DNA of 64,000 bases. Origin: a virus. Under the pieces are notes generated by a model that saw only the letters and a program-made list of their open reading frames with translations, did not search any database and was not told the DNA's origin. The translations under genes and the position numbers were made by a program. Where the stretch lies: IMG/VR virus record IMGVR_UViG_3300047457_000500, positions 59,488 through 123,487 of that record, one strand, 5' to 3'. Of this stretch, positions 8,226 to 58,459 are shown piece after piece; the stretch's first letter is position 1, and each line of letters opens with the position of its first letter.

Positions 8226-8506
8226 TAGTTCTGACTCTCTAATCCAGTCTGCATTACTGCCAAGTTCATTGTTGTTGATCCAATTGCATATAATGCATCA
8301 GCGCTTGGAAGTTCAAAAGATATTGAGTGGTTTGGCATAATTCTAAAACCATAATTAGTTGAAGAAACTGTATCATCTCCTCCAAGGTAAATGTACCCAG
8401 TGTCATTTACATTTTGAAGTGTTATGTCCATACCGCCATGTTTTCCATTTGGCGTAAGTCTTACTGGTGTTGCGCTTGTTAGTTCTACGATGGAGTGTTG
8501 TGCCAT
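8225..8506 (-). CDS. Small virion protein
   Basis: Coupled to its neighbours; ITLQN...IYLGG pattern. Confidence 0.55.
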   Translation of the reverse strand: MAQHSIVELTSATPVRLTPNGKHGGMDITLQNVNDTGYIYLGGDDTVSSTNYGFRIMPNHSISFELPSADALYAIGSTTMNLAVMQTGLESQN

Positions 8507-8507
8507 T

Positions 8508-8597
8508 TTATACCTTCCTTATCTTAAAAGTTTTTGAATTAATCTTAATAACTGGTGGTAGTTCTGTTCTTGGAGATGTGATTTTAATAACTGCCAT
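8508..8597 (-). CDS. Small hypothetical protein (29 aa, MAVIKITSPRTELPPVIKINSKTFKIRKV)
   Basis: Fills the gap exactly, with a TAATG overlap. Confidence 0.5.
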   Translation of the reverse strand: MAVIKITSPRTELPPVIKINSKTFKIRKV

Positions 8598-8983
8598 TAT
8601 AAACTCCCTGGAGTAATATCTCCCAAAACATAAATTGTTCCAATAACTGGAGTCCACACAGTGTCATTATCAATTATTACCTCAACATCAAATGGAAGTT
8701 CTGCAACTGTTGACTTATATCCGCTTCCCCAATTTTCTGTTGTTTCTGGATCTGCTTTTATGTCTACATAACCATCAGCGGCTTCACACTTTAAAGAATC
8801 TAATACATCTCCAAACTGATCGTAGGCCGTGCATCTATAGGTCCATCCGTCTGTGTTGTAATAGGTAACTTCGTCATCTTGATAAAACTCTACACGTAAT
8901 GTTGCTGTGTCTCCACGTACAACTCTCCACTGTATGTTTGCTGGATCAGCACCAAAAATTTCGGGAGCACATGGATTTGTCAT
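8597..8983 (-). CDS. Tail/baseplate-like protein (VVRGDT family)
   Basis: WRVVRGDT motif; leaderless promoter TGGTATAAT upstream. Confidence 0.6.
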   Translation of the reverse strand: MTNPCAPEIFGADPANIQWRVVRGDTATLRVEFYQDDEVTYYNTDGWTYRCTAYDQFGDVLDSLKCEAADGYVDIKADPETTENWGSGYKSTVAELPFDVEVIIDNDTVWTPVIGTIYVLGDITPGSL

Positions 8984-9012
8984 AATAGAAAGATTATACC
9001 ATCAAATATGGA

Positions 9013-9057
9013 CTTGCCCCAAGATCGGTGGGTATGAGAGACGGATCAAGGGGCAAG
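9013..9057 (-). ncRNA. Candidate small hairpin RNA with a 17-nt pyrimidine-rich loop
   Basis: Stem cttgcccc-aa-gatc / gatc-aa-ggggcaag; an extended -10 (TGATATACT, 9065-9073, minus strand) lies just upstream. Confidence 0.4.
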
Positions 9058-9273
9058 CATTAAAAGTATATCATAAAGGACAAAACGGACATTAGTTGTT
9101 TACGTCACAAATAGTTTATGGTATAGTACTTATAGGGTTTGTGGGGACTTTGCACTAGAGATATTATCTTCACTTCCACCATTAGATGTAACTAAAAAAT
9201 CTATGGGGGGAGGGGGGGACTTTCCCTAAAGATACTTACTATTATATAAAGAAAACAATGTTATAATCAATAT

Positions 9274-40236: not shown

Positions 40237-40439
40237 TTTTCTCCCTTTGTGTTAGTTGGATGATCTAATGGAGTTGGAACTGTCATTAAAGCACCACATT
40301 CATTGCATTCCCCGTCTAAAAAATAAATCCCTATTTCATAATCTGAGGGATCAAAAATAACCTTTACTCTTATTACTTTAGAGCCACACATTAAGCAACA
40401 TGACGATGGGATACCACGTAGATTAACCTTGTTCTTCAT
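40233..40439 (-). CDS. Zinc-ribbon protein
   Basis: CLMCGS...CNECG. Confidence 0.6.
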   Translation of the reverse strand: MKNKVNLRGIPSSCCLMCGSKVIRVKVIFDPSDYEIGIYFLDGECNECGALMTVPTPLDHPTNTKGEK

Positions 40440-41970
40440 AAAACTTTTCCTTTAAAATATGAAAATGTGTTTTAGAGTTATCTACAATACTGTCCCATAC
40501 ATTTTTTGCTTCCTGTCTTTTCTGAAAATATTTTTCCATTTTATTCTTAATGTCAGAATTATTAGCATCAGACATTTTTTCAAGAAGACTTATATATGTT
40601 TTATAAAATGGTCTTATGCCAAACCCTGCCTTGATAGTGTCTACGTTATTATTTGCCCATTCTACATTAGATTTAAAATAATTTTTTGGATATGACTTAG
40701 AGGTAACACTTCTCCAATACTCTGTGTCATTTCTTTGAGACAATGCGTAATGCATTCCTACAAAGTCAAACATTTTTTCTATTCTTGTTTTAGTTTTATA
40801 ATTAAAATTATCAATGTCATACTGTGTTACTGATCCTCTTTCAAGAGCATCTACCAACGTAAAGCAATTTTGATGAGTAAGTAATAAGCCAGTGCTTTCA
40901 AGAGGTTCTAAAAACCCTGCTGCCAAACCTACAGCAACAACATTACCAACCCAAAATCTATCATAGTATCCGTTGTGTATTTTTATATTTTTAAATGTTA
41001 AAGATTTTGATCTTTCTGGATCGTGAACCACCATTTGATCAGAATCTAAGTATTGCTTATACTCCTCAAGAGCATCTTCATCACTTATAAAATCATTACA
41101 GTATACATATCCAGAACCAATTCTATTCCAAAGAGGGATGTTCCAGACCCATCCATTATTAATAGCAGTACAATTAGTAAAGGTTTGTAACTCTTTTTCT
41201 TTATTAGTATATGGAACATGCGCTGTCCATGCCCTGTTGTTAGGCAAAAACTCTGCTGTTGAGATAAACTTTTCATTGATAAACTTACCTAGCAATATAC
41301 TGTTAAATCCAGAACAATCAACAAATAAATCAGCAGTTACTTCTGTGCCATCATCTAAAACTAAAGAATGTATTCCTGAATTGCTTGGGTAAATTTTATT
41401 TACTGTACCCCAAATTCTTTTTACTCCTCGTGGCATAGCATAAAACTCTGCAAGCCAGTTGCCTAATTTAGTAGCATCCATTTGCAATGCCAAATCCCTA
41501 TGCGGTTGGTAAGGATTCATGTCCTCTATATGATCAACCACGATCTTATTTGTTTCTATACTTTTTGCCTGCGGGAAAAAATATCTAACATAATCTTGAT
41601 CTTCAGTTTCTGGGTAAAAAGCCTTTTTATAATACCAATCATCTAAACCAAAACATGTTAACTCTTTATCTAAATTTGGGTGCCCAAATGGATAATAAAA
41701 TGTTTTAGAGTCTTTAGTTTTAAAGTTTGTAAAACCAATTGCAACCTTGTATGAAGCATTTGTATACTTCATAATACTAGAATAATCTAAATCTAAAAAG
41801 TTAAAGAATCCATTTATTTCAAATGTAGTGCTTTCTCCAACACCTATTATAGGAACATCTTTACTTTCAATTAAAACTATTTCTTTTTCAGGATATGCTT
41901 TTATCAAAGCAGATGCTGTCATCCATCCAGCGGACCCTCCGCCAACAATAACTATCTTATCTGTCTTCAT
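40423..41970 (-). CDS. Flavin-dependent tryptophan halogenase-like protein (PrnA family)
   Basis: GGGSAGW, GVGEST, FVDCSG, GWVWNIP and FLEPLESTG motifs. Confidence 0.9.
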   Translation of the reverse strand: MKTDKIVIVGGGSAGWMTASALIKAYPEKEIVLIESKDVPIIGVGESTTFEINGFFNFLDLDYSSIMKYTNASYKVAIGFTNFKTKDSKTFYYPFGHPNLDKELTCFGLDDWYYKKAFYPETEDQDYVRYFFPQAKSIETNKIVVDHIEDMNPYQPHRDLALQMDATKLGNWLAEFYAMPRGVKRIWGTVNKIYPSNSGIHSLVLDDGTEVTADLFVDCSGFNSILLGKFINEKFISTAEFLPNNRAWTAHVPYTNKEKELQTFTNCTAINNGWVWNIPLWNRIGSGYVYCNDFISDEDALEEYKQYLDSDQMVVHDPERSKSLTFKNIKIHNGYYDRFWVGNVVAVGLAAGFLEPLESTGLLLTHQNCFTLVDALERGSVTQYDIDNFNYKTKTRIEKMFDFVGMHYALSQRNDTEYWRSVTSKSYPKNYFKSNVEWANNNVDTIKAGFGIRPFYKTYISLLEKMSDANNSDIKNKMEKYFQKRQEAKNVWDSIVDNSKTHFHILKEKFYEEQG

Positions 41971-42322
41971 TTGGTCTCATTTGCTCTAATTGCTCAAACG
42001 CTTTCTTTATTCTAGGAACTGATAGGTCATTGGGAGACTCAGATTCTTTTTCTAAAATATTTGCAAACAAAACTAATTCATTTTGCAAGTCTTCAATATA
42101 CTTATATGCCATCTCTCGTGTATCATTTAAAAATGCTATGAAATGATCTTTATCTGGATCTTCATTTGTATGAATAAGTTTATCTTTTATAGCATTCATA
42201 TCTATTGTTGACTGCGCTAATAAAAACATCAACTCAATATTTTTATTTTTTAACCTTATATTTTCTATTACTGCGCCAGTAATAACTACTACAACGACTA
42301 CAAATATCAATAAATCAAGCAT
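41957..42322 (-). CDS. Membrane-anchored hypothetical protein
   Basis: N-terminal TM helix. Confidence 0.6.
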   Translation of the reverse strand: MLDLLIFVVVVVVITGAVIENIRLKNKNIELMFLLAQSTIDMNAIKDKLIHTNEDPDKDHFIAFLNDTREMAYKYIEDLQNELVLFANILEKESESPNDLSVPRIKKAFEQLEQMRPNEDR

Positions 42323-42812
42323 TTAGTGCCTCATGTGTTGGCCAATAATACTTGCACGGTAATTTACGCTCTGGGCAACAAGGTGAGTTAAAAAAACTAT
42401 TAACATATGGCTGAAATTTTGCATAATATAGAGGATCTTTATTAAACAAACTAACCCTATGTGTGGTAGTAATTCTAGACAATTTATTATCATCAAACCA
42501 AAATGAAGGAGTGTCACTACGCCAATCGTTCCAACATTGGTCTTTAAGTCTATTAAGGTTTGTCTCATTGTTTTCTGTCTTGATGCCACGAGACTTAGCC
42601 TCTAAAATCATAGCCTGTACATATGACCACAAACCACGCTCAAACCCACGCCACATTAATACTGCTGGATGATTACGCCACCCACCTGTAGGAGACTTAC
42701 CAGATAAAACATTAAGTATTTGGTAACATTCTAAAATTTGTTTATTAAGACGTTTTGAATCAAGTATTTGAGCAGACTGACTAAAGTCTTGAGATGGTAG
42801 AAATGTTTGCAT
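42315..42812 (-). CDS. Pyrimidine dimer DNA glycosylase-like protein (endonuclease V family)
   Basis: MQTFLP, LDSKRL.KQ..E..QI and HPAV.MWRG motifs. Confidence 0.8.
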   Translation of the reverse strand: MQTFLPSQDFSQSAQILDSKRLNKQILECYQILNVLSGKSPTGGWRNHPAVLMWRGFERGLWSYVQAMILEAKSRGIKTENNETNLNRLKDQCWNDWRSDTPSFWFDDNKLSRITTTHRVSLFNKDPLYYAKFQPYVNSFFNSPCCPERKLPCKYYWPTHEALNA

Positions 42813-42813
42813 G

Positions 42814-43050
42814 TTATTTACCGCCTTCACGTACTAAAAGAACAACTGCGCCATTGTCCTCAAGAGCCTTTTTAACCCTTATCATATATTCTACAGCACG
42901 GCGCTTATCTGTGTCAAGTAAAGACATAAAAGATTTTTCTGGTGCCCTAACTGTTATAAAACTATCATTGTCTACCAGTTCTAGTTTAAATCCTTTTGGG
43001 GCAAAATGGTCTAATGACCTAAATGCTTTACGCATAGCATCTGTATACAT
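42814..43050 (-). CDS. Hypothetical protein
   Basis: Operon-coupled ORF. Confidence 0.6.
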   Translation of the reverse strand: MYTDAMRKAFRSLDHFAPKGFKLELVDNDSFITVRAPEKSFMSLLDTDKRRAVEYMIRVKKALEDNGAVVLLVREGGK

Positions 43051-43349
43051 TAAAATAATTCTTCTGGTTGCTTTCTAGCAGTAGTTATTATTGCTTTGGT
43101 CCCTTCCCACCTTACACGACCCTTGCACCCAACATTATATTTTGTATCGCCTTCATATTCTGACGACACTGCATAAGCATATCCATGTAATTCAAAATCA
43201 CTAGCCAAAACTTGGTTTCCATTAATAAAAATTCTCCAAACCATCGGATCGTCTGGCCCAGCCTTTGTATTAAATCTTAATATAATATCATCATATGGCC
43301 TTAACCATCTATCTTTAATTATAGACCAAATATAATTTAATTTATTCAT
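43050..43349 (-). CDS. Hypothetical protein
   Basis: Operon-coupled ORF. Confidence 0.6.
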   Translation of the reverse strand: MNKLNYIWSIIKDRWLRPYDDIILRFNTKAGPDDPMVWRIFINGNQVLASDFELHGYAYAVSSEYEGDTKYNVGCKGRVRWEGTKAIITTARKQPEELF

Positions 43350-44104
43350 AGTCCCATTTCTTTTCTTTTTTGTGTTGCAGAAATAGACTGTATATTATCA
43401 GGCAATGTTACCTGTTCAATCTTATATCCTACATCACGACCATACACAATGTTTGTAATATTAGGCAATCTTAATACAAGGGTATCCTTAAATGGATTAT
43501 CTTGTTTAATATAATTTTCTACTTCGCTATACTGTAAAGGATCTTTTTCTGATGTCTTGTATGTATTACGGACCCCAACCAGTACCTGATTAGTTCTTTT
43601 ATGTGCTTCTTCTTTTAATGCTTGATGACCCTCATGCCACGGTTGGTAACGTCCAAGTTGCAACGTAGTTGGAGCAGACCAATCAAACAATCCGCCAGCC
43701 TGTATTACAGTATTAACTTCTTGCTCTATTGTGTATCCATCTAATATTCTTAAATCAAAAATCCTAGGCTCTTCCCAAATCTTATTTGTATTTTCAAATC
43801 TGCCTTCTTTAATTCTATCAACCCACACTACTAAATCTGCATCACCAAATGCTTCTCGTGTCTGTTCTGTAGGACAAATAAAGTCAACAATAACTGGTGC
43901 TACATTTTGTTTTGCAATAAGACGTGCCATCTCACCCATGCGTCTTGCTTGCTCAATTCTATCTTCTGGTGTAAAGGAAAGATCAGAATTAACTGTAGAC
44001 CTAACCTCATCAGCATTAAGATGTATAGCGTTTATTCTCTCTTTTAGCGCTACCGCTAGTGCAGTTTTGCCAGATCCAGGAAGCCCAATTATTTGAATTA
44101 TCAT
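43346..44104 (-). CDS. Adenylylsulfate kinase-like domain fused to an HxGH nucleotidyltransferase
   Basis: GLPGSGKT, NADEVR..DLSF..EDR and GRYQPWHEGH motifs. Confidence 0.85.
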   Translation of the reverse strand: MIIQIIGLPGSGKTALAVALKERINAIHLNADEVRSTVNSDLSFTPEDRIEQARRMGEMARLIAKQNVAPVIVDFICPTEQTREAFGDADLVVWVDRIKEGRFENTNKIWEEPRIFDLRILDGYTIEQEVNTVIQAGGLFDWSAPTTLQLGRYQPWHEGHQALKEEAHKRTNQVLVGVRNTYKTSEKDPLQYSEVENYIKQDNPFKDTLVLRLPNITNIVYGRDVGYKIEQVTLPDNIQSISATQKRKEMGL

Positions 44105-44111
44105 ATATCGA

Positions 44112-44549
44112 TTATATCAGACCAACATAATCGCTACAAATTCCAGCAATAAAGTCTGGTACATTATTTCTGGGATCTTCTAAATATACCAAAATACTTT
44201 TATCTGTTACTGGCATACCAGGGTATGTCCAAATATAATGATTTGTAGTTATTGTATGCTTGTCGCTCTCATGCCAAAATCCTTGATAATATTTTGGCTT
44301 ATTGATTATATAATTTAATGCATCTAGATTTTTACAATGTAGCCATATTTTTTTTACATATGAGTCTATAAAAAATTGATCAATCTGGTACTGAGGATAG
44401 TCGTGGCCAAGATATAGCACATTATCTACTACCCAAAAATCTACCTCAACATTATATCCAGATGATATTGCCTTCTTTATATATTCAGGATTATTTTCTA
44501 GTTCTTTATTTGGACCAAATATATTTCCTCTATGTGATATTTTAATCAT
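44112..44549 (-). CDS. GDPD/PI-PLC-like phosphodiesterase
   Basis: ISHRGN, EN, VEVD, LGHD, HCKN and GICSD motifs. Confidence 0.8.
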   Translation of the reverse strand: MIKISHRGNIFGPNKELENNPEYIKKAISSGYNVEVDFWVVDNVLYLGHDYPQYQIDQFFIDSYVKKIWLHCKNLDALNYIINKPKYYQGFWHESDKHTITTNHYIWTYPGMPVTDKSILVYLEDPRNNVPDFIAGICSDYVGLI

Positions 44550-45747
44550 TTACAAGGCCCCATTTTTCAATTGCCTTGATATATTCTGACTTATAGTCTC
44601 TATCAATTGCCTGCCTCATAGCCCTAGCACCACCTATAGTGCCTTCAGGATGGCCGTGTACGGCTCCACCAACGTTAGCCATATACTCTGTCCCAAATCG
44701 ACGTGTAATAGCCTCTACAAGCCCAGGGTGCATTCCGCAACTTAGGGCAGGAACAACATTACTATCGTTTAATAGCCTTATAGATCTATCTAGTTCTACT
44801 TCGTCATCGCTTAAATACCCTCCCCACATACCAGTATGTATTGTGTCTACGCCCATCAGAGCAGCAAGTTTACATAAAACGTACCAGTCTATCTTAAAGT
44901 TATGCTGTGAATTGGTTAGTATCTTATCTCCGCTTTTCTGAAAATGCATAAATAATGGTAGATCTAACTTACGTATTGAGTTATAGGCTCCAAATCCACT
45001 CCAAAAGTTTACATGTATTCCATTTCCACCATTTTCATAAACTAACTTTGCTCTATCTAAAATAGCATGTGGGTCAGAGTTTATGCAATGTGCAAAAACT
45101 ACATTCCTGCCAGAATCTGAAATTATTTTTGCAATGTGCTCTACACGTTCTTCTAGTCTACAAAAAGACGGATTAGATAAAATCTCATCTTCTTTTATGA
45201 AATCAACTCCACCATCCACTAACTCTTTAACAATATAACCAAGTTGTTTTACAGATATGCCAGTTTTTGGCTTTACGATTCCGCCAAGCAACGGCTTATT
45301 ATATTGATTAGTAAACTCTCTAATACCAGACATTCCGTATTTTGGTTTTAAGAAACTTCTTTTTACAGACTCAGGAAACTCTATATCAACAACACGACAT
45401 ACTTTAAATATATTAATATCTAATTGACCGCCCATTATTTGACACAATAAATGAGATATACCGTCATTATCCCAATCTGAATTTATTTTTGGAAATCCGA
45501 TTTTTACAAATCCGTTTAATTTTGATTTTAAATTTTCTTCTTCATCATATATAACACAGGAAGACATTTCAAATATGTCGTCTGTTTCCCAGTTGTTTCT
45601 TTGCTTTGGATTGCCAACACTTTGTCCTATTGCTAAATCCCATGCTGCGTCATTAAGTCTTCCATGAACAGAGTTTACCTCAATGTAATAGGTTACAACA
45701 ACACATCTATCCTTTTCTAGGTCATCTAACTCTCTATAAAACTTCAT
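44542..45747 (-). CDS. RuBisCO-like protein (form IV/RLP)
   Basis: GGIVKPKTG, GVDFIKEDE, DTIHTG, PALSCGMH and GGAVHGHP motifs; start MKFYREL with a GGAGA RBS. Confidence 0.9.
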   Translation of the reverse strand: MKFYRELDDLEKDRCVVVTYYIEVNSVHGRLNDAAWDLAIGQSVGNPKQRNNWETDDIFEMSSCVIYDEEENLKSKLNGFVKIGFPKINSDWDNDGISHLLCQIMGGQLDINIFKVCRVVDIEFPESVKRSFLKPKYGMSGIREFTNQYNKPLLGGIVKPKTGISVKQLGYIVKELVDGGVDFIKEDEILSNPSFCRLEERVEHIAKIISDSGRNVVFAHCINSDPHAILDRAKLVYENGGNGIHVNFWSGFGAYNSIRKLDLPLFMHFQKSGDKILTNSQHNFKIDWYVLCKLAALMGVDTIHTGMWGGYLSDDEVELDRSIRLLNDSNVVPALSCGMHPGLVEAITRRFGTEYMANVGGAVHGHPEGTIGGARAMRQAIDRDYKSEYIKAIEKWGLVND

Positions 45748-46057
45748 ATTTATCTCCTGGTAGTGATGGAACCTTAACAACTAAAACAGTACAGTCTTCT
45801 AAAAATATAGGATCAGCAATCTCCCCTGGTGTAAAAACAAATACATCTCCAGAGTTAAGTTCTTTATCCTGTATTATCATTTTGCCATTTACTAAAACAT
45901 TATACTCAGTGCCAACCTTGTGATAATGTTTTGGCCAAACCTCTCCAGCCTTATGCCGAAGCAAACCAACTTCAAACTTATCTGTCTTTAGTAAAGATGG
46001 ATCAAAGTTTCCAATTATCCACCCCCTAGTAAAGTCTTCTATTCTTCTGATTTCCAT
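45734..46057 (-). CDS. Cupin protein
   Basis: HYHK..TEYNV...G.M motif. Confidence 0.8.
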   Translation of the reverse strand: MEIRRIEDFTRGWIIGNFDPSLLKTDKFEVGLLRHKAGEVWPKHYHKVGTEYNVLVNGKMIIQDKELNSGDVFVFTPGEIADPIFLEDCTVLVVKVPSLPGDKYEVL

Positions 46058-46767
46058 AATTTCTCCATATATAGTTCTAAGTCTGAAGGCACCCCAACAG
46101 CGTTATGCTGATAAGAAGGTATGTGATATATTCCAATTTTTTTGCCATCCATAATCATTGAGTTATAGGTTGGACCAACATAAAACTCATTGTTATACCT
46201 TTCATTATTATAGATCATTCTTGTTGCACTGTCAACAAAATCTTTTCCATGTTTCCAATAATGGATACCATTTAATGATATGTCGCTTATAACTTCTTTT
46301 TCTTTTATCTGTGTTACTAATCCTTGTTTATTAATTTTAGCATAACTGTTTTTATCCGTACTTGATGTGTAAGTAACAATCATTCCATCATATTTAGAGT
46401 TACGGGCAACCTGTAAAAATAAATCAGAATCCCACCACATTATTTGATCTGAGTTAGCAATAATTAACTCATCATCATTGTTTATATAATCTTTGGCAAT
46501 AAGACATGTTTCTGCTGGGCCATTTGTTAATTCATTTATTTTTATAATATTACATGAACTATCTATACTTTTTAATACAGAATATAATTCATCAAAAAAT
46601 ATACTATCTCTTATAACAAAATGATAATTACCTATTATAGATAAAGACTCTATTGCATGCTCTATCATTGTTTTGCCATTTATTTTAATAAGTGGCTTTG
46701 TTGTTTTATAAGTTTCTATAGGAAATCTGCTACCCAGACCCGCCATAGGAATTAATATATTTGTCAT
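46039..46767 (-). CDS. Sugar nucleotidyltransferase
   Basis: ILIPMAGLGSRF, KPLI, NSDQ, KEK and NEFYV motifs. Confidence 0.85.
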   Translation of the reverse strand: MTNILIPMAGLGSRFPIETYKTTKPLIKINGKTMIEHAIESLSIIGNYHFVIRDSIFFDELYSVLKSIDSSCNIIKINELTNGPAETCLIAKDYINNDDELIIANSDQIMWWDSDLFLQVARNSKYDGMIVTYTSSTDKNSYAKINKQGLVTQIKEKEVISDISLNGIHYWKHGKDFVDSATRMIYNNERYNNEFYVGPTYNSMIMDGKKIGIYHIPSYQHNAVGVPSDLELYMEKLWKSEE

Positions 46768-47729
46768 AGTGTATTTAGCATCTTTTCTAGTTCGTATTCT
46801 ATTTTACCATATTCTCTAGAAATGTTAGGAACTGATATATATTTTTTATTAGCCCATAAGGTTGCTAACAAGAAAAAATGATAGTGAAATTCTATTTTTT
46901 GTCTAACTATTTGTATGGTGCTTAATTCTATTACTGTTGTTTTATCCCTCATAAATAATAAATTAGTCAACCCAGATCCAGATAATCCAGCAATAACTCC
47001 TACCTGATCAAAAAATCTTATTTGATCTTCAATAGTTTTAAATATACTAGTATCAACTATTTCAAAACCATGTTTTTTAAATAAATTTTCTAGTTTAATC
47101 TCATCATCTATTCTTAGGTCATCTTTATATGGCAGTTTATCTATCTCTTCTTGTGTCATTTGGTTTATTTGTGTGACTGTTAAGTTTTGCTTTCCGCCCC
47201 TTGTAACATAAACCTTTTTATTATTAGGCAAAGATATATCTCTATACGAACTCATAAGATCGTCTAGTATATTAATATGATCTCCACACATTTCTAGTTT
47301 TTCATAATAATAAAAATTTGATAATATAGGAGGATACTTTGCATGTATCTGTGTTACGGAAAATTTAATATTATAATTTCTTAATACTTGAACAATAAAA
47401 GTTCCAGTTGATTGAAATGCAGAAATTTCTTTACTTGGATGCAATAGTATTACCTCTATATTAGGGTCTTTTTTATATTCCCATAATATTGGCGCTAGAG
47501 TATTTAGTAAACTATGAAAAAAATTTGTTTCAAATCTAACTACTATTTTTCTTAATTTAGTTTCTTCTAGGAAGGTATCAGCATACTGTGTTAGTTCCCT
47601 ACGAAACTCTTCATTATGCCAATTTTCTTTTAATATTTCTGTTATTATTGGCTTACCTGCATTAAAGTCATCTTCAATTATACAAATACCCTTATAGTGC
47701 ACTGGCTCTACTGGATGCTGTCTTATCAT
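46764..47729 (-). CDS. Glycosyltransferase family 61-like protein
   Basis: FFH, YVTR, QIRFF and GSGLTNLLFM....VIEL motifs. Confidence 0.75.
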   Translation of the reverse strand: MIRQHPVEPVHYKGICIIEDDFNAGKPIITEILKENWHNEEFRRELTQYADTFLEETKLRKIVVRFETNFFHSLLNTLAPILWEYKKDPNIEVILLHPSKEISAFQSTGTFIVQVLRNYNIKFSVTQIHAKYPPILSNFYYYEKLEMCGDHINILDDLMSSYRDISLPNNKKVYVTRGGKQNLTVTQINQMTQEEIDKLPYKDDLRIDDEIKLENLFKKHGFEIVDTSIFKTIEDQIRFFDQVGVIAGLSGSGLTNLLFMRDKTTVIELSTIQIVRQKIEFHYHFFLLATLWANKKYISVPNISREYGKIEYELEKMLNTL

Positions 47730-48649
47730 AAATAATTTAAAAATCCTTTGTTTTTAAAGTATTCTATTATTGTATCAGATTTTCTTTCATGTGGTATAGT
47801 AATATATATATGTTTTTTAGCCCAACAAAAGGCAGCATAAAATGGATGTACCTGCTGCTTGGCAGAAACTACTACTGGCGTCTGTAGTTCTATTACTACC
47901 CCACCTGGCTGCATAAAAATCATATTTGCCATTCCTGATCCAGAAGGACAAATCATAACCCTTACATTATTTAAAAACTTAACCTGCTCTCCAAAATTTT
48001 TAAAATCTTCTGGGTATACTATTTCTACATTATTTTCTATAAAAAATTCAATAAGTTTGTCTTCATCCTCAACCCTTAAATCATTTTTTACAACTAAGGT
48101 ATCTCTATCTCTGTCATGAAAAATAGATCCCTCTTCTTTGGGCTTTACTTTTGATCTAGCCAAATAAATAATCTTATCTGGTTTTTTAGACCTATCAATA
48201 AACCCGCTGCAATAATCGTATACATCATCAACAAAAGAAGATTGAAACGGAACTGTATGAAAATATTTTGCATCTTTTACTTTTACAGTCTCATCTTTTA
48301 TATTAACTAGGCGGTATCTAACCTTTTTATTAGTTAACATATTAAGTATAAATTTAGAATGAGGAATTTGCAAATCTCCATCGTGAACATCTATTCCTAA
48401 TATTATTAAAAAATAAGCATTTTTGTTTTTATTAAAGAAAAATAAAATATAAGAGACCATATTAAAAAATGCATGTAAGAAATTTTTGTGCCACAAAACT
48501 ATATGAACATCATCTTCTTGGATTAAGTCCTCAATGTCAAGATCATCTAACCTTGTTATTGTGGGGCCAAAATCTTCTTTTTTAGTTCTAGATAGTAGGT
48601 TAACACCTTCTAAAACCTTTGGCTCAATGAAGTCTCCGTATACAAACAT
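47726..48649 (-). CDS. Glycosyltransferase family 61-like protein
   Basis: FLH, YLARS, EQV.F and GSGMANMIFMQPGGVVIEL motifs. Confidence 0.8.
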   Translation of the reverse strand: MFVYGDFIEPKVLEGVNLLSRTKKEDFGPTITRLDDLDIEDLIQEDDVHIVLWHKNFLHAFFNMVSYILFFFNKNKNAYFLIILGIDVHDGDLQIPHSKFILNMLTNKKVRYRLVNIKDETVKVKDAKYFHTVPFQSSFVDDVYDYCSGFIDRSKKPDKIIYLARSKVKPKEEGSIFHDRDRDTLVVKNDLRVEDEDKLIEFFIENNVEIVYPEDFKNFGEQVKFLNNVRVMICPSGSGMANMIFMQPGGVVIELQTPVVVSAKQQVHPFYAAFCWAKKHIYITIPHERKSDTIIEYFKNKGFLNYL

Positions 48650-48650
48650 G

Positions 48651-48935
48651 TTATTTCTCGTTGGTCAAACTAACCCAAAGATTGCTCCAGTCTTTTTCAT
48701 CTTTATGATTATTAAACTCTTTAGATATTTCTCCACCCTCTAAATAAACTCCGCCCCATACTCCCCATTCTTTTTGAGAGACGCCCACAGAAAAGCAAGT
48801 TTTCATTACTGGGCATCTGGTGCACAATTCATCTATTGCGCTTCTAAAGTTTTCTGATTCTTCGTATTTATCAAAAAATAAATTAGTATCATAATCTAAA
48901 CATGACCCATTATCTTTCCACTTTAATTTATGCAT
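48651..48935 (-). CDS. whiB: WhiB family transcription factor
   Basis: W.....C...FF...C..CPV...C...WGVWGG motif. Confidence 0.9.
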   Translation of the reverse strand: MHKLKWKDNGSCLDYDTNLFFDKYEESENFRSAIDELCTRCPVMKTCFSVGVSQKEWGVWGGVYLEGGEISKEFNNHKDEKDWSNLWVSLTNEK

Positions 48936-50513: not shown

Positions 50514-50834
50514 TTACAATAGGCTTCTTTTTATCTCTTTGAGGGTATAAAGAACTTCCTCATCAAGATCTTTAGTTGCATCATAATCAAAGGCTTTTTC
50601 TGTAAGTTTTACTAACGGATTTTCCTCAGTAATATCCATCTCCACTATTTCTTTTTCCCATAAAATCATTATATGTGTAGAGAACAGATTTTGTATTTCT
50701 CTGTGTAAAACTGGGCTTATTTTTTCTAATTTTTTGGTAAAGTTATATAGCATTTCTCCAGTGTCTGGGTCTATACCTGCTGGCTCTAATGCACCAGACA
50801 ATATTAATTTATCGAAATCATCATTTACTTGCAT
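50514..50834 (-). CDS. Hypothetical protein
   Basis: Operon-coupled ORF. Confidence 0.6.
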   Translation of the reverse strand: MQVNDDFDKLILSGALEPAGIDPDTGEMLYNFTKKLEKISPVLHREIQNLFSTHIMILWEKEIVEMDITEENPLVKLTEKAFDYDATKDLDEEVLYTLKEIKRSLL

Positions 50835-51237
50835 TCTTTGCCTTTTCTTTTTGTTGTGCTAGTGCAGCAAAGTCTTTAACCTTTGTCTCACCCATGTAAG
50901 GCCATGCATATCCCTGCTCTATCATGTGATCATTAACAGATACAGTGTCTCCATCTACATAAAGCCAGCCCAATATTCTTCCATATTTTTCTGACGAGTC
51001 TGGTTTTTCTGTTTTAATTACAATGCCCTCTGCATCTTTTAGTTTATTTTTTAAAAATTCTTTTGATTCAAGGCCAAGGCTTTTCTCAAACTTATCCTTA
51101 GTTCTTGACTCTGGAGTATCTATACCCGCAAGCCTTACTCTTTGTGAATATGATACATTAAACCCAAGATCTATGTCGACGTCAATAGTATCGCCATCAA
51201 CAACAGCGATAAGTTTTTTTACTCTATAAATATACAA
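50821..51237 (-). CDS. Thermonuclease (SNase-like)
   Basis: VVDGDT, RVRLAGIDTPE and KYGRIL motifs. Confidence 0.9.
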   Translation of the reverse strand: MYIYRVKKLIAVVDGDTIDVDIDLGFNVSYSQRVRLAGIDTPESRTKDKFEKSLGLESKEFLKNKLKDAEGIVIKTEKPDSSEKYGRILGWLYVDGDTVSVNDHMIEQGYAWPYMGETKVKDFAALAQQKEKAKNASK

Positions 51238-51238
51238 C

Positions 51239-51934
51239 TTATACCACCTCCACGATATTAGGAAGTACTACTATATCTGCGTTTGGAATATCCTTTAATA
51301 TCATAGATTTGACCTGAGCAATAGATAGTTTATCCTCATCTGACATTCCCATACAGTGTCTTATTCCTATAACAACATTTCTAGTTTTAGATAGTTCGTT
51401 ATATTTTTCTAAATCCGAATCTGTCCATGGCTGAAACTTGCCAACCATTAGTGTTTGCTCTGGCTTCCAGTCAAATGTCTCATATTTTTTAATAACACTA
51501 AATGCTCTAGTTGGTAGTGCATCAAGATATTCATTGCCAGTATTAGTTATTCTAAGGTCGTACTCATTTTCTTCTGGCTCTTCCCATGAAATAACTTTAC
51601 CAAATTTATCTGTAAATTCTTTTTTATCTGTAGTATCTATCCAAACTGAAATGTCTGGAAACTTTGCGGTATCAGATAAATGCATATATCCACTAATATC
51701 TCTGAATTGATCACGTGCCTCTTTTGTTGGAAAATATCCACTAACCACTATAGATGAGTTATAATCCTTTGTAAAGAAAATTGATATGGTCCTCAACCAT
51801 CGAGCATACTGAGCCTGTAATTCCGCCATTGGCAAATCTGTATCCAATACATGCCACGAGTTAGTTCTTTCTGCATAGGCTATAGATACATCAGTTCTTG
51901 TCTTTTCGTCCATTCCAAAAAATTGAACAATCAT
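51239..51934 (-). CDS. Catalytically degenerate paralog of the APS kinase-nucleotidyltransferase fusion
   Basis: Collinear with 43346..44104, but the P-loop and HxGH motif are lost. Confidence 0.65.
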   Translation of the reverse strand: MIVQFFGMDEKTRTDVSIAYAERTNSWHVLDTDLPMAELQAQYARWLRTISIFFTKDYNSSIVVSGYFPTKEARDQFRDISGYMHLSDTAKFPDISVWIDTTDKKEFTDKFGKVISWEEPEENEYDLRITNTGNEYLDALPTRAFSVIKKYETFDWKPEQTLMVGKFQPWTDSDLEKYNELSKTRNVVIGIRHCMGMSDEDKLSIAQVKSMILKDIPNADIVVLPNIVEVV

Positions 51935-52722: not shown

Positions 52723-53448
52723 TCATTTTGATTGAGAGATTACAAGTGTATAATAAGAATAAAACATAAGAATATTAGTTTTCCATCCATTTATTATATC
52801 AAAATGAAATGGAAATTTTCTATGTTTTTCTAAAATTTCTTTCATTTCTTTGCTCTTGCCCCTCAATATTTTTTGTGTCGGCTTACTTATATCACAACAA
52901 ACCGCTAAATCTCTGTCTGGAAAAACTGTTGCAATGTCATCAATGTACTTATCCAAAAATGGAATACAAATAAAAATAATAGGACAATCTAAAGATTTTA
53001 TATTATTTAAAAAATTTAAAGTATTATCTTGTGGGATCCTTCCTGCAAAATAAAATTCTCCCCTATTTCCTTCAAAACCAGAAAAAAACAATGCTTGCAA
53101 AACCGAGTTTGGTCCAGGAATGAGGTCTATATCTATTCCCATTCTAATTAAGTTGTGTAATAATTCAATACCAGAGTCTTGTATTGTGGGATAGCCGTCA
53201 TTTGAAACTACAAGAATATTTTTATCTTCCTTCAATCCATTAAGTATTACTTCCAATATTTGCTTAATATTATCCTTAGTTTCGTATATTTGTGAAATAT
53301 TTGCACCATTTTCCAAACAAAATTTTTTAAATACTTTTTCAGTTTCAACTATTGCTATATCAGTTATCTTTAGGTACTCCTGTAATGCAATAGCAATATG
53401 AGAGTTGTCGCCTATTGGGGTGGCTGCAAATACAACCTTTTTTGTCAT
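52723..53448 (-). CDS. rsmI: RsmI-like methyltransferase, copy 3 (most diverged)
   Basis: AATPIGD, VSNDGYPTIQDSG, IPGPNS and FYFAGRIP motifs. Confidence 0.7.
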   Translation of the reverse strand: MTKKVVFAATPIGDNSHIAIALQEYLKITDIAIVETEKVFKKFCLENGANISQIYETKDNIKQILEVILNGLKEDKNILVVSNDGYPTIQDSGIELLHNLIRMGIDIDLIPGPNSVLQALFFSGFEGNRGEFYFAGRIPQDNTLNFLNNIKSLDCPIIFICIPFLDKYIDDIATVFPDRDLAVCCDISKPTQKILRGKSKEMKEILEKHRKFPFHFDIINGWKTNILMFYSYYTLVISQSK

Positions 53449-54881
53449 CTAACTATCCTTGTGTTATATGTATTTTCCCAATTAACTATATCTGTTTCGT
53501 CATTAAGCAATGGTTGCCCTTTGATATTTAAACTAGTATTTAGTAATACTGGAACTCCAGTAAGCGTATACCAATTAGATAGTACAGCATATAAACCAGG
53601 ATGTTGCTTTTCATTTACTGTTTGAACTCTGGATGTTCCGTCTTTATGAACTACTGATGGAATCTTTTCAGGCTGTAAACATTTAACCGCATACTGCATA
53701 TACGGAGAAGTAAACTTCATATCAAACCATTTGCTTGCATGCTCCTCCATAACTACTGGTGCAAAGGGTCTAAATAGTTCCCTCTTCTTGATTAAATTAA
53801 CTTTATCTTTAATGTTAGGGTCTCTTGGATCTGCCAAAATTGATCTATTACCCAAAGCCCTTGGACCATATTCAGCCTTTCCAGTTGCTACTGCTGCTAC
53901 CTTGTTTCTAATTAATTCGGTAATTATTTCTGTTACTGGATACTCTCCGCCTAAATCATATCCAAGATATGGGGTTTGCCAATTTATATGATTACCGTAT
54001 GCAGCGGCTGCTGCACCAAGTGATGAACCAGCATCGCCTGGGTTTGGCATAATCCACACATTATCAAACATTCTCCAAAGCATAGTATTGGCAGAACAAT
54101 TTAGGGCACACCCACCCATAAACACAAGATTTTTTTCTCCAGTAAGTTTTTGTGCCATTGCCATAAAATTAACAAGTCTATCTTCGTATACTCTTTGTAC
54201 TGCTGCAGCAATGTCAAACTTATCCTGTTGTGATATCTCTATTCCCCAATCTAAAATTCCATTATGAAAAGCATACTTTTGTTCATGTATGTTTGGAAAA
54301 TATTCTTTTACTTTTATATAATACTTTGTCCAGTCACCGTAGGCAGCCATACCCATAAAAATATATTCTTCTTCGTTTGGTTTTAGTCCAACTAACTGAG
54401 TAAATGCTGAATAAAACAAACCGAAACTTAGTGGATAGTTTTGTTTATAAACTTGCCTAATGTTTGATCCATTACCAACCCAAACTGTTGAGGTATTATA
54501 TTCTCCGATTGCATCTAAAACAACTATGACTGCATTTTGAAAATTACTTGTGTAATAACCTGCTGCTGCATGAGAATAGTGATGGCTAAATGACTCTCTT
54601 GGAATCCATCTTAAATCTTTACGATCTAAATAATACGGCTTCCCCCCACCAAAACCACCACGAGTTGATATTCTTAATTTCTTTAACCACCTATTTTCAT
54701 AGTAAGCAACCCTATCTGGTTTACCAAACTGTAGAGCATAATCAATAATGCTATCATTATTAAACCAGTCATTTTTTTGTTTGCTAAATCTTTCTGCGTG
54801 TCCAGCAAACAGTATCTCACCATCCTCTATTAAAGAAATAGAGGCGTCATGTGTTGTTTCATTTATTCCAAGAATTTTCAT
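53445..54881 (-). CDS. Carbamoyltransferase (NodU/CmcH family)
   Basis: HDAS, ERFS..K, HHYSHA, DAIGE, GGCALN, EYGPRALG.RS and LNTSLN motifs; start MKILG. Confidence 0.92.
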   Translation of the reverse strand: MKILGINETTHDASISLIEDGEILFAGHAERFSKQKNDWFNNDSIIDYALQFGKPDRVAYYENRWLKKLRISTRGGFGGGKPYYLDRKDLRWIPRESFSHHYSHAAAGYYTSNFQNAVIVVLDAIGEYNTSTVWVGNGSNIRQVYKQNYPLSFGLFYSAFTQLVGLKPNEEEYIFMGMAAYGDWTKYYIKVKEYFPNIHEQKYAFHNGILDWGIEISQQDKFDIAAAVQRVYEDRLVNFMAMAQKLTGEKNLVFMGGCALNCSANTMLWRMFDNVWIMPNPGDAGSSLGAAAAAYGNHINWQTPYLGYDLGGEYPVTEIITELIRNKVAAVATGKAEYGPRALGNRSILADPRDPNIKDKVNLIKKRELFRPFAPVVMEEHASKWFDMKFTSPYMQYAVKCLQPEKIPSVVHKDGTSRVQTVNEKQHPGLYAVLSNWYTLTGVPVLLNTSLNIKGQPLLNDETDIVNWENTYNTRIVR

Positions 54882-55548
54882 ATCTGTCCTTAAATTGATT
54901 ATACCAGAACTGATGAATACTTTTTCCAGGGTGATGGTTGTCATCTCCGTGCAGGCTATCGCCATAGTATTCTATCTTATCAAAATCTGGAGACCTAAAC
55001 GTTTTAAACTGTTCAAGCATTTGATAATTTTTTTTATCTGCCCAAGAAGTAGATAAAAGAGTTATATTGTTTTTCTTACAATAATTTTCTAATATATAAT
55101 AATTATTATATATAAAATTATTTATAAAATCTTTTTTAATGTATCTAGATTCCCTATGTATTGGCGGTAGTAAAATAAAAATATAATTTGGCACCCCGTA
55201 AGACTCAACATACTTTATGGTATTAATAATAATTTCTATTATAGATCCGCCTGGTAAAGATATGTTAAAAAAGCCAGAGGTATTTTTAAAATCAGAATAT
55301 ACATTATATGCCCATGTATCTTCTATGTTTACCCCTATGCCAGCAGTTATAGAACATCCATTAAATAATATATGGGTTTTGCCTGTATGATCTTTTATTA
55401 ATTCATCACACCTAAGCCCCTTAGAATTTAATTTATAGACTATATCATTTTTGTCAATATGTTTTTTATAATCTGGCATGCCATCTTTATGCCAAAAGAT
55501 TGGCGCTATATCTGGATTGTCTAGTAAATAATTTTCATAAAATCGCAT
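54859..55548 (-). CDS. SGNH/GDSL-like protein
   Basis: NGCSITAG and DNHHPG motifs; start MRFYEN inferred from a TAATG overlap. Confidence 0.7.
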   Translation of the reverse strand: MRFYENYLLDNPDIAPIFWHKDGMPDYKKHIDKNDIVYKLNSKGLRCDELIKDHTGKTHILFNGCSITAGIGVNIEDTWAYNVYSDFKNTSGFFNISLPGGSIIEIIINTIKYVESYGVPNYIFILLPPIHRESRYIKKDFINNFIYNNYYILENYCKKNNITLLSTSWADKKNYQMLEQFKTFRSPDFDKIEYYGDSLHGDDNHHPGKSIHQFWYNQFKDRYENSWNK

Positions 55549-56829: not shown

Positions 56830-57684
56830 TTAGTAAATATAGTGTAATCTGCCTATAAACTTTCTACCGTCTAACTTATCAAATGGGTTGTTGTAACAAT
56901 CGTACTCAACATCATTTGTTAAAAATGGTAGAGGGAATATAGAATCAATATTAATTTTATGATGATTTATAAAATCACTGACAGTCCTATTATTTCCCGA
57001 TTCAAAATATAAACTTTCTTCATTTTTTATTACTTTGATCATTTCATTATAATTATGATTTATAGAGTATGGAACGTACAGGGTATCTATAGAGTTTGTA
57101 CCTTCCAACGAATACAGATACTGTGGGCAAGAATATATGTCTACTCCCCTAGTAAACCAATATAAAGATAAATACTCTGATTCGCCACGATACTTTAAGA
57201 ATGTTGGATAGTTGGTGTTCCTAAACAACTCTGTTTTTAAAAATATAAAATCTTTATTCACTATCTGAGACAGCATAAAACTATCTGATTGGGTTGGATT
57301 ATTATATAAGAAAAAGTTATCATTAGTTATATTTGGATTCCCTTGTCCAGATATCACTGTATTATCTTTATAATTATCTATTAAGGTAGAGTCCCAATTT
57401 TCAGAAACAAATACGTTATCAGAAATTATTAACATAAAATCTTCTTTAACATCTTTTGTTGCTTCAAATCTATAGTGACATTGTCCATATGGGTGATCCC
57501 AAAACTTATGTCTGTATTTTACATTTTTAATTTCTTCATAATATGTATTTTTAATAATAGGTGTTTGGTCTATTATGTATATATTTATGATGTTATTTTT
57601 GGATGAATTTTCGTTCAGTCTTTTTACAACTTCCTTAAGAAGTTTTCCTTTATATGAATAAATTACAACTCCAATGCTACTCAT
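56830..57684 (-). CDS. GT-A glycosyltransferase, GT60 (hydroxyproline GlcNAc transferase)-like
   Basis: IGVVIYSYK, I..Q, G.C..R and ML.ISD...F..NWD..LI pattern. Confidence 0.5.
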   Translation of the reverse strand: MSSIGVVIYSYKGKLLKEVVKRLNENSSKNNIINIYIIDQTPIIKNTYYEEIKNVKYRHKFWDHPYGQCHYRFEATKDVKEDFMLIISDNVFVSENWDSTLIDNYKDNTVISGQGNPNITNDNFFLYNNPTQSDSFMLSQIVNKDFIFLKTELFRNTNYPTFLKYRGESEYLSLYWFTRGVDIYSCPQYLYSLEGTNSIDTLYVPYSINHNYNEMIKVIKNEESLYFESGNNRTVSDFINHHKINIDSIFPLPFLTNDVEYDCYNNPFDKLDGRKFIGRLHYIY

Positions 57685-58459
57685 CGTCGTGGTTTGCATC
57701 CTTTGAAAACATATTCTTTATTCCATAAATCTTTTTTCTCCATGTTGTTTTCTTGTAATATCCGTATAGCAATGATCTTCTGTCTTCTGCCTTTAATAAT
57801 TTTTTGTCCACAGCATCATAAGATTCATCTATACTCATTTCCCAATTATCTCTTTTAAATGGTATTATCTGCATAATTGGAGTACCTTTTGGTATAACTC
57901 CCTGAAATCCACGCTTTAAAAAGAAAGCAATAAATACTGGAAGGCCCCATATATCTGATTCAACAACTCCAGACATAGTATAAAATGGAAGGTCGTGCCT
58001 ATTCATTGGATGTGTTATTAGTACAGAATATCCAGGAGGTGTATCGTAAAACCAATTCATTCTAAACCCATAGTGCATAGGATGACAGTTATCTGGAACA
58101 ACTATATCATTGGTTGGTCTTTTATCTAAAAGCATTATGCTTCCATTCCAAGATAACTTAGGCCTTCCATCTGGATCCAACTCCACATGCAAATCATCTT
58201 CCAATAAATACATATATCCAGCGGTTAGTGCATCAAAAAATGGCAAACACATTTTTGTTGCAACTTGAGCACCATCTGAACCTAGGTGATTAACTGGGTT
58301 TAAATATCTGTCATCATTCCAGTTATCATGTTTTGCTAGACTCTTATACCATTCTGGAACATGTTTGACTGCTGGTTCTGGAGCAACCTGACATACAGAC
58401 CAGTGTGGTTGTGCATTTAGTGCTGGTGTAAATACTATATCTAGAGGCTGATCACTCAT
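57677..58459 (-). CDS. Hypothetical beta-strand protein, paralog A
   Basis: PEWYK, K.C.PF.D....GY, W...TPPGYS.L..HP and GTPI.QIIPFKR motifs. Confidence 0.7.
   Translation of the reverse strand: MSDQPLDIVFTPALNAQPHWSVCQVAPEPAVKHVPEWYKSLAKHDNWNDDRYLNPVNHLGSDGAQVATKMCLPFFDALTAGYMYLLEDDLHVELDPDGRPKLSWNGSIMLLDKRPTNDIVVPDNCHPMHYGFRMNWFYDTPPGYSVLITHPMNRHDLPFYTMSGVVESDIWGLPVFIAFFLKRGFQGVIPKGTPIMQIIPFKRDNWEMSIDESYDAVDKKLLKAEDRRSLLYGYYKKTTWRKKIYGIKNMFSKDANHDDE

Follow-up and report, generated by a model that had tools for sequence, protein, structure and literature searches.

A phage RuBisCO-like protein (RLP) encoded amid genes for the activation and transfer of sugars is probably a biosynthetic enolising isomerase dedicated to a single nucleotidyltransferase (NTase), and would feed the synthesis of an activated sugar for a surface glycan. 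The gene lies in a stretch of 64,000 nucleotides (the window) that comprises bases 59488-123487 of the 123,487-base virus record IMGVR_UViG_3300047457_000500, rated 100% complete. Six tightly packed minus-strand genes at 44112-48649 encode two GT61-family glycosyltransferases, the NTase, a small cupin, the RLP and a 145-aa protein with a minimal glycerophosphodiester phosphodiesterase (GDPD) fold. The initial annotation of this block proposed that the RLP takes part in making an unusual, possibly branched, nucleoside-diphosphate (NDP) sugar. The biosynthetic role is favoured by the non-carboxylating active site, by linkage and fusion to the NTase, and by the glycan loci in which the pair is found; a branched product has been dropped, as there is no gene to support it.

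Active site and family of the RLP

All 15 aligned homologues begin at residue 12 of the 412-aa open reading frame (ORF), and AGGAGA is found 5 nt before the ATG at 45747. The RLP is therefore assigned to 44542-45747, with 401 aa. This start is the one correction required to the gene layout as first annotated, the six overlapping genes being otherwise as described.

The protein belongs to the RuBisCO large-subunit superfamily, with 145.2 bits for PF00016 (cut-off 30.1) and 22.3 bits for PF02788 (1.6e-4, cut-off 20.7). Its best matches in the PDB are form III RuBisCOs (8dht at 1.2e-42, 2cwx and 1geh), followed by the 2,3-diketo-5-methylthiopentyl-1-phosphate (DK-MTP-1-P) enolase 2oej at 4.4e-37. 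It falls below the NCBIfam cut-offs for carboxylating RuBisCOs (rubisco_III 203.8 against 497, PRK04208 194 against 438, PRK13475 102.8 against 489), for the MtnW/YkrW DK-MTP-1-P enolases (NF007095 156.8 against 409, TIGR03332 134 against 513.6) and for OiaX of the apiose pathway (144.9 against 700). On these NCBIfam scores, on which its placement relative to the characterised RLPs rests, the protein lies outside every characterised clade, that of methionine salvage included.

The active-site residues were taken from PDB alignments to the form III RuBisCOs, and are given in spinach numbering. Those kept are K175 and K177 (VKPK), K201, D203 and E204 (KEDE), H327, S379, G381 and G403/G404. Those replaced are E60>G, T65>N, N123>G, H294>Q, R295>K, H298>D, K334>Y and G380>C; MHFQKSG stands in place of HGHRAMH, and GGYLS in place of GKLEG. 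The motifs first picked out by eye (KPK, KEDE, HFQKSG and GGYLS) are all borne out by the alignments. The alignments show retention by the RLP of the Mg/carbamate centre, of the lysines that abstract a proton and of one loop that binds phosphate, and loss of the residues for addition of CO2 and for binding a second phosphate. The proposal that it is not a carboxylase thus stands.

The same pattern extends through the family. All 55 aligned members, whether viral, bacterial or archaeal, share without variation GQS.GN, KPK, FIKEDEI, the Q, S and G of QKSG, H.GM.GGY and SCG, and near-invariant positions include GGQ.D (53-55 of 55), the K of QKSG (53 of 55) and the second G of the GG loop (54 of 55). 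The losses affecting carboxylation and the distal phosphate are also general, with E60>G, N123>G, H294>Q and K334>Y in all 55, R295>K in 53 and H298>D in 47. Since the motifs are invariant across these 55 members, one conserved reaction other than carboxylation is to be expected.

The characterised form IV RLPs include the MtnW/YkrW DK-MTP-1-P enolase, the 5-methylthioribulose-1-phosphate 1,3-isomerase of Rhodospirillum rubrum, and OiaX/OiaC of the apiose pathway. The phage protein shares with them the RuBisCO fold, the carbamate/Mg centre and the K175 equivalent, and these enzymes perform enolate chemistry on a keto-sugar monophosphate without fixing CO2. It differs in that its family scores far below their cut-offs and has its own invariant motifs QKSG, GGY and SCG, and in a setting that appears to be biosynthetic rather than one of catabolism or salvage.

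Distribution of the RLP and its linkage to the NTase

How widespread is this RLP? A protein database contained 2748 relatives (E up to 0.001) among 5329 candidates, of which the best 120 listed are 58-96% identical. A scan of viral contigs gave 12 RLP loci, and a scan of genome contigs with the RLP alignment gave 48; the alignment was used because a single-protein query had found 0 relatives among 14 stretches of the genome contigs. No RLP was found in 50,697 GenBank phage records. The cellular carriers are Pelagibacteraceae (two separate clades), Legionellaceae, Francisellaceae, Verrucomicrobiota, Planctomycetota, Patescibacteria (including a metagenome-assembled genome (MAG) of Beckwithbacteria) and many DPANN archaea. 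The many marine and SAR11 relatives bring to mind the IV-GOS RLP clade, reportedly that of Tabita et al. 2007, as a lead only.

A tree of 74 rows was made by quick search with support from the Shimodaira-Hasegawa-like approximate likelihood ratio test (SH-aLRT), omitting L005 and L008, which are duplicates, and L007, L060 and L061, which are too short. In this tree the window RLP and those of the viral loci L003, L004 and L006 form a phage subclade within a clade of metagenome proteins, sister to one SAR11 clade, and viral and cellular rows interleave throughout. In the reading favoured here, the phage, a freshwater one that resembles actinophages, would carry the cassette as a mobile module that is also present in the surface-glycan islands of SAR11, Legionellaceae, bacteria of the candidate phyla radiation (CPR) and DPANN archaea. 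In SAR11 clade-2 loci (e.g. L043:6770-9951) the RLP lies between two divergent NTase paralogues, with mini-GDPD, GT17, GT61, methyltransferase and epimerase genes nearby.

Phage members of the family are already in print. Jaffe, Castelle, Dupont & Banfield 2019 (PMC6389311) reported ~80 non-redundant phage 'Form IV-like' RLPs that group with Beckwithbacteria, with a function termed 'unclear', and the earlier remark that RLPs are rare in viruses is therefore outdated. These proteins are described as phage-borne and highly divergent, with some key residues kept and others lost. The window RLP answers to that description, against which, rather than the sequences themselves, it was compared; it is phage-encoded, has divergent residues and groups with a Beckwithbacteria RLP, the MAG protein L025 (47% identical) lying inside the family in our tree. 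The main text of that paper makes no mention of nucleotidyl-, glycosyl- or cupin, and neither the range over SAR11, Legionellaceae, Verrucomicrobiota and DPANN nor the NTase linkage and fusions appear in it; its supplements may show gene maps. In a limited literature collection without supplements, no publication was found that links an RLP to an NTase, or that treats the function or context of the clade apart from Jaffe et al.; the same limited collection gave nothing related on CDP/UDP-ribulose or -xylulose. The clade is thus a known one and the observation is real, and the functional reading, drawn from sequence, is plausible.

A partner was counted as linked when tblastn and ORF matching placed it no more than 1.5 kb from the RLP; full-flank viral loci have at least 2 kb on both sides, and the cellular NTase counts include an adjacent paralogue in L017. 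The NTase is near the RLP in 11 of 12 viral loci (10 of 10 with full flanks) and in 42 of 48 cellular loci (33 of 34). The corresponding values for the cupin are 11/12 (10/10) and 13/48 (10/34), and for the GDPD-like gene 10/12 (8/10) and 18/48 (15/34). The only viral locus without NTase or cupin is L007, which is cut inside the RLP, and the cellular loci without NTase are L021, which has full flanks, and the short or edge contigs L023, L027 and L060-L062. Linkage to the NTase persists down to 35% RLP identity, in Legionella. From these counts the constant core is the pair of RLP and NTase.

Three RLP matches were found in a search among longer proteins. In two of these, the metagenome proteins P0121 (813 aa) and P0122 (817 aa), RLP, NTase, a spacer and cupin follow one another in a single chain. 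The third (P0123, 724 aa, also from a metagenome) has a 340-aa C-terminal extension to the RLP, without a Pfam match or similarity to the cassette proteins. NTase and cupin form one ORF in the viral loci L011-L014. Conservation of the neighbourhood, which had been put forward as a check, is therefore strong for RLP and NTase, both in viruses and in cellular glycan loci, and is reinforced by the two natural fusions with the cupin.

All ORFs of the 60 loci were clustered and representatives scanned. The glycan genes among the neighbours encode NAD-dependent epimerase/dehydratases (14 loci), GT2 (11 and 6 loci), GT11, GT17 and GT61 glycosyltransferases, DegT aminotransferase and methyltransferases, and there is a weak RXYLT1_C match among the RLP loci. 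In 4 of 4 Legionellaceae loci a LicD-family gene lies divergently beside RLP and NTase, and the cupin and GDPD-like genes are missing there.

The NTase is also found with other partners. Matches to it by tblastn occur in 22 GenBank phage records, 19 of them of Synechococcus phages, and matches to the mini-GDPD in 17 records, all of Synechococcus phages and all lacking the RLP. The cassettes of S-CAM9, S-PRM1, B3/B23, DSL-LC03, S-SM2, Bellamy and S-SKS1 resemble the block in the window, with the NTase in all (28-44% identical), the mini-GDPD in all but S-SKS1 (35-46%), and often GT61 and nucleotide-sugar epimerase genes. In contrast to the window, the place of the RLP is taken by HAD_2, RpiB, 3,4-dihydroxy-2-butanone-4-phosphate (DHBP) synthase or class II aldolase. 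S-CAM9 gp067 and B23 gp352 are HAD_2-NTase fusions with the mini-GDPD gene close behind, and a Pelagibacter genome encodes a 52%-identical HAD_2-NTase besides its RLP cluster. S-SKS1 SWZG_00042 (L067:4998-6425), annotated only as 'DHBP synthase', is an NTase fused to a full DHBP synthase domain (PF00926, 5.4e-65), and Bellamy gp206 (L069:4489-5646), annotated as 'phosphatase', is an NTase fused to RpiB (PF02502, 3.9e-32). In S-SM2 a tandem NTase is followed by GT61, class II aldolase, a small HAD and the mini-GDPD. Among the best 120 of 628 long NTase relatives (E up to 1e-10), 65 have HAD_2, 53 have NTase-type domains only (tandem forms), one has a methyltransferase and one has no match. The mini-GDPD and NTase clusters in the ESM Atlas are mostly viral, labelled 'hypothetical' or NTP-transferase.

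In a quick tree of 71 NTase domains (SH-aLRT only; L005, L008, L010, L023 and L050 omitted) the fused NTases interleave with those linked to RLPs. The HAD-fused NTases group with the RLP-linked NTases of SAR11 clade 1 (SH-aLRT 99), and the RpiB-fused NTase is sister to those of DPANN and SAR11 clade 2 (SH-aLRT 97). RpiB, DHBP synthase and AraD-type class II aldolases all act on ribulose-5-phosphate or its isomers, and it is mainly for this reason that the substrate of the RLP is placed in the pentose/pentulose phosphate pool. The S-SKS1 and Bellamy fusions are likewise a hint that compounds derived from ribulose-5-phosphate may be nucleotide-activated in cyanophages.

The cassette and its phage genome

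The cassette genes and the two that flank them are collected in Table 1. Stop and start codons of successive cassette ORFs overlap by 4, 4, 19, 14 and 8 nt, in order.

Table 1. Genes of the RLP cassette and its immediate flanks, in window coordinates.
Feature	Position	Strand	Remarks
WhiB-like regulator, directly upstream of cassette	48651..48935	-	PF02467 4.1e-12; context gene, pathway membership not claimed
GT61-family glycosyltransferase b	47726..48649	-	307 aa; leads the block, with whiB 1 nt before it; PF04577 1e-14, 55.4 bits (cut-off 27)
GT61-family glycosyltransferase a	46764..47729	-	321 aa; PF04577 1.7e-14, 54.7 bits (cut-off 27)
NTase, distinct NDP-sugar-pyrophosphorylase subfamily	46039..46767	-	242 aa; PF00483 2.2e-7
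Small monocupin, phosphomannose-isomerase-like	45734..46057	-	107 aa; Cupin_7 24.3 bits, below cut-off 27
RLP	44542..45747	-	401 aa; PF00016 3.4e-42; ORF of 412 aa extends to TTG at 45780
Minimal GDPD/PI-PLC-fold protein, catalytic His/Arg/Glu/Asp/His set kept	44112..44549	-	145 aa; no Pfam match
P-loop kinase fused to cytidylyltransferase-like domain, 7 nt downstream of cassette	43346..44104	-	APS_kinase 8e-16 (residues 2-85); CTP_transf_like 1e-3 (residues 151-187)

The NTase scores 31.1 bits for PF00483 (cut-off 21.2), and P7, G10, G12, R14 and F15, in and around its N-terminal G-x-G-x-R motif, are invariant in 17 of 17 homologues. It reaches no NCBIfam equivalog, the best being rmlA_long (43 against 320). 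Its profile matches the uncharacterised structure 4evw at 5.7e-36, GDP-mannose pyrophosphorylases at ~1e-12, RmlA and GlmU at ~1e-8, and IspD at 3.5e-4. Prediction of a complex between RLP and NTase gave a score of 0.00, which is informative neither way.

H44 and E51 of the cupin are invariant in 13 of 13 homologues. Its profile matches the mannose-6-phosphate isomerase 7zvm at 2.8e-4, ranked after quercetinases. The predicted structure has a mean predicted local distance difference test score (pLDDT) of 96.3, and its best Foldseek matches are phosphomannose isomerases of the archaeon Thermococcus, again with 7zvm first (2.7e-6, template modelling (TM) scores 0.67/0.69). The model upholds the assignment as a cupin where the Cupin_7 sequence match is sub-threshold.

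The 145-aa protein matches 0 Pfam families at E up to 0.01, and hence not the GDPD family PF03009. Nevertheless the profile of its family (16 homologues) matches the GDPD structures 3i10 (2.7e-5) and 7e0v (2e-4), and H6, R7, N9, E35, D37, H49, D50, H71 and K73 do not vary among these 16. The GDPD catalytic set His-Arg ... Glu-x-Asp ... His-Asp is thus present as H6, R7, E35, D37, H49 and D50. Foldseek ranks 1-10 for the AlphaFold model (pLDDT 94.8) are all GDPDs (best E 9.5e-4, query TM score 0.45-0.61), the low TM score arising because the protein is ~60% of the length of a GDPD. From the model and profile, the protein is a reduced GDPD/phosphatidylinositol-specific phospholipase C (PI-PLC) barrel with the catalytic set, outside the Pfam GDPD family, and the GDPD-like label first given to it is confirmed despite the absent Pfam match.

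The two GT61 proteins are distant paralogues, with cross-matches 25-33% identical. Orthologues of GT61 b (54-58% identical) occupy the same position in the related viral loci L003-L006 and L008. GT61 genes are likewise found in the SAR11 RLP locus L043 and beside the NTase in cyanophage S-SM2.

Is the cassette truly part of this genome? The phage encodes terminase, portal, head protease, a DnaE-like polymerase, ribonucleotide reductase and tail proteins, together with many nucleotide-metabolism genes. Its polymerase shares 53-55% identity with its counterparts in Streptomyces phages of 121-131 kb, and the contig is a genuine phage that is most like these large Streptomyces phages; the polymerase and the WhiB gene together suggest an actinobacterial host. 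A chimera at the cassette, a concern raised by the initial annotation, is contradicted by five other viral contigs (L003-L006 and L008) in which the same cassette has the same flanks, with whiB in the same position upstream and the halogenase downstream. In addition DNA contigs of an independent run span the gene junctions, and phage hallmark genes are found elsewhere in the genome. Near-identical DNA is present in 17 lake/freshwater runs, 8 of them possibly the source. Three RNA libraries contain exact short contigs over parts of the cassette, with the strand not shown; as carry-over of DNA is not excluded, these are weak evidence of expression.

The cassette is part of a long co-directional gene array, across which the GC content falls to 0.29 over the GT61 genes. 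Promoter- and terminator-like sites are at the level of shuffled sequence (76 against 70.3, and 5 against 6.0), so that no promoter or terminator of its own can be claimed for it; the sole strong minus-strand terminator-like hairpin is at 39789-39756.

The gene at 43346-44104 follows the cassette in L004-L006 and not in L003 or L008. Its C-terminal domain is of the HxGH type, with weak matches to nicotinamide mononucleotide (NMN) adenylyltransferases in NCBIfam. It could be an extra member of the cassette, a sugar kinase/adenylyltransferase, or a NadR-like enzyme of NAD salvage. A distant paralogue at 51239-51934 (minus strand; ~25-27% identical by tblastn in related contigs) has no Pfam match.

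Other genes of the phage are of note in their own right. Two belong to the tryptophan-halogenase family, at 40423-41970 (minus strand; PF04820 3e-101) in the window and at G000:C1:15715-17217 (minus strand; phrog_2928 7.5e-86). A carbamoyltransferase (Carbam_trans_N and _C) is encoded at 53445-54965 and a weak GlcNAc-transferase-like protein at 56830-57699, both on the minus strand; with these two genes further along the same strand, the phage has a second glycan-modification island. A denV-like pyrimidine-dimer DNA glycosylase (PF03013 3.7e-19) lies at 42315-42830, 1.3 kb below the cassette, and a staphylococcal-nuclease homologue (PF00565 5.6e-18) at 50821-51237, 2.2 kb above it, both again on the minus strand and within the array that contains the cassette.

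Proposed pathway, alternatives and significance

The pathway that we favour would begin in the pentose-phosphate pool. The RLP would take a ketopentose monophosphate, most likely ribulose- or xylulose-5-phosphate, and rearrange it via an enediolate into a sugar or ketol phosphate that is accepted by the partner NTase. The phosphomannose-isomerase (PMI)-like cupin may contribute an aldose-ketose step, and the NTase would form the NDP-activated compound. The two GT61 enzymes would use this to build a glycan, either on virion proteins or on the envelope of the host. The mini-GDPD could handle a phosphodiester step, such as the opening of a cyclic phosphate or the transfer of a phospho-sugar.

Two known systems offer partial parallels. 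In the type II PMI/GDP-mannose pyrophosphorylase (PMI-GMP) enzymes, such as ManC, AlgA and XanB, a single protein has an NTase domain and, after it, a cupin isomerase domain, an order also found in L011-L014, P0121 and P0122. The first and the last step of the PMI-GMP route fall to these two domains, and the sugar-1-phosphate between them is provided by a phosphomutase that is a protein of its own. The cassette differs from this in having no Pfam MannoseP_isomer match, in an NTase of the 4evw subfamily, and in a third enzyme that is an RLP (elsewhere HAD_2) and not a phosphomannomutase. The second parallel is with CDP-ribitol synthesis by TarI/TarJ (fused as Bcs1; ISPD in animals) with LicD/fukutin-type phospho-alcohol transferases. 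There too an enzyme that modifies ribulose-5-phosphate is coupled or fused to an NTase, LicD is found in all four Legionellaceae loci, and GT61 genes and the weak RXYLT1_C match are features of RLP loci. However, the cassette has no reductase, and its NTase is not of the IspD/TarI family.

The proposed pathway can be drawn in two versions. For one through a sugar-1-phosphate there speak the relatedness of the NTase to sugar-1-phosphate enzymes, the NTase-cupin fusions that recall PMI-GMP, and the presence of HAD_2 (beta-phosphoglucomutase-like) in the place of the RLP. For a non-anomeric route of CDP-ribitol type there speak LicD and the fusions with RpiB and DHBP synthase. A specific version of the former, which we regard as tentative and rather doubtful, is a mutase-free 'carbonyl-walk', in which the RLP (with the cupin where present) would move the carbonyl of a pentulose-5-phosphate to give a pentulose-1-phosphate, then a pentose-1-phosphate, and finally an NDP-pentose for GT61 pentosyltransferases. 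The direction would be the reverse of that reported for the R. rubrum RLP.

A number of observations weigh against the role proposed for the RLP. The RLP-NTase pair alone is constant, the cupin being missing from 35 of 48 cellular loci and the GDPD-like gene from 28 of 48. L021 is the sole full-flank locus without NTase, cupin or GDPD-like gene, and its RLP (7998-9188) lies between an arginase-family gene and a long protein with a methyltransferase domain. The viral loci are not all independent, since L003, L007 and L008 are near-duplicates, as are L004 and L005. Both trees are quick ones that have no support values other than SH-aLRT, and long branches lead to the S-SKS1, Bellamy and L043b rows. 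The NTase profile is nearer to the sugar-1-phosphate enzymes (GDP-mannose pyrophosphorylase, RmlA and GlmU, 1e-12 to 1e-8) than to IspD and the inositol-phosphate cytidylyltransferases (1e-4); this kinship fits an anomeric phosphate, whereas a non-anomeric one is what LicD and the fusions with RpiB and DHBP synthase would suit, and the two lines conflict. Substrate, nucleotide and order of steps in the pathway are inferred.

The alternative that survives best, although we think it unlikely, has the NTase acting first. The RLP would then work on a nucleotide-linked keto-sugar, for example epimerising an NDP-pentulose or moving its carbonyl, much as RmlC- and FdtA-type cupins act on NDP-4-keto sugars, with the beta-phosphate of the nucleotide held in the retained site. 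The cupin follows the NTase in both the RLP-NTase-cupin and the NTase-cupin fusions, as would be expected for enzymes acting on an NDP product, and the neighbouring epimerase/dehydratases are makers of NDP-keto sugars. Loss of the distal phosphate residues would leave room for a different group, and a route starting with an NTase on a ketose phosphate is reportedly known for CDP-6-fructose in C. jejuni. But no RLP is known with a nucleotide-linked substrate, the phosphate site that is kept is a closed glycine loop in RuBisCO, and the fusion partners RpiB and DHBP synthase use free sugar phosphates.

It is much less probable that the RLP works with the cupin as in methionine salvage, an MtnW-like enolase paired with an acireductone-dioxygenase-like cupin, recycling 5-methylthio- or 5-deoxyribose during infection with no relation to the glycosyltransferases. 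The folds of RLP, cupin, HAD and class II aldolase are the same set as those of MtnW, MtnD, MtnX/C and MtnB, HAD_2 and class II aldolase genes are present in the RLP-less cyanophage cassettes, and 2oej is among the better PDB matches. Against this, both MtnW models score far below their cut-offs (157 and 134 bits against 409 and 513.6), the constant partner is an NTase that is fused to the RLP in P0121 and P0122, and the cupin is missing from most cellular loci. The genes beside the RLP are those for the NTase, cupin and GDPD-like protein and glycan genes, no search aimed at mtnA, mtnB, mtnK or mtnD having been made.

We consider it just as improbable that the activated sugar decorates phage DNA as a hypermodified base, rather than a glycan or protein. 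Phages are reported to make their own NDP-sugars for the glycosylation of DNA, and this cassette lies in a lytic-type phage genome rich in nucleotide-metabolism genes. Yet the genome has neither ThyX nor a gene of the thymidylate-synthase family, which holds the pyrimidine hydroxymethylases, and this argues against glycosylation of hydroxymethyl-pyrimidine DNA. Moreover GT61 enzymes are protein and glycan transferases, and the same cassette is found in cellular surface-glycan loci.

Finally, we give next to no weight to a working carboxylase, or to a cellular fragment misassembled onto phage DNA, for which the form III RuBisCOs as best PDB and NCBIfam matches and the low GC of the GT61 genes might speak, since K334, E60, N123 and H294 are replaced in all 55 aligned relatives (with rubisco_III at 204 against 497), and the cassette with its phage flanks recurs in five other viral contigs and across junctions in independent DNA contigs.

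To our knowledge every RLP characterised so far acts in a salvage or catabolic pathway. If the role as an isomerase serving the NTase is correct, the RuBisCO fold would gain a biosynthetic use through an RLP clade tied to an NTase in surface-glycan loci, and a function would be assigned to the 'Form IV-like' phage RLPs that has been left open since 2019. As the cassette is small (its soluble enzymes number four) and the likely substrates are commercially available, the idea is directly testable in vitro. Should the 'carbonyl-walk' also be true, it would be a previously unknown route to sugar-1-phosphates, used by SAR11, Legionellaceae, CPR bacteria, DPANN archaea and many phages. More broadly, the RLP would have a role in the very abundant aquatic cells of SAR11 and in viruses, as well as in Legionellaceae, and would place an unknown activated sugar or sugar phosphate on surfaces that decide phage adsorption and grazing.

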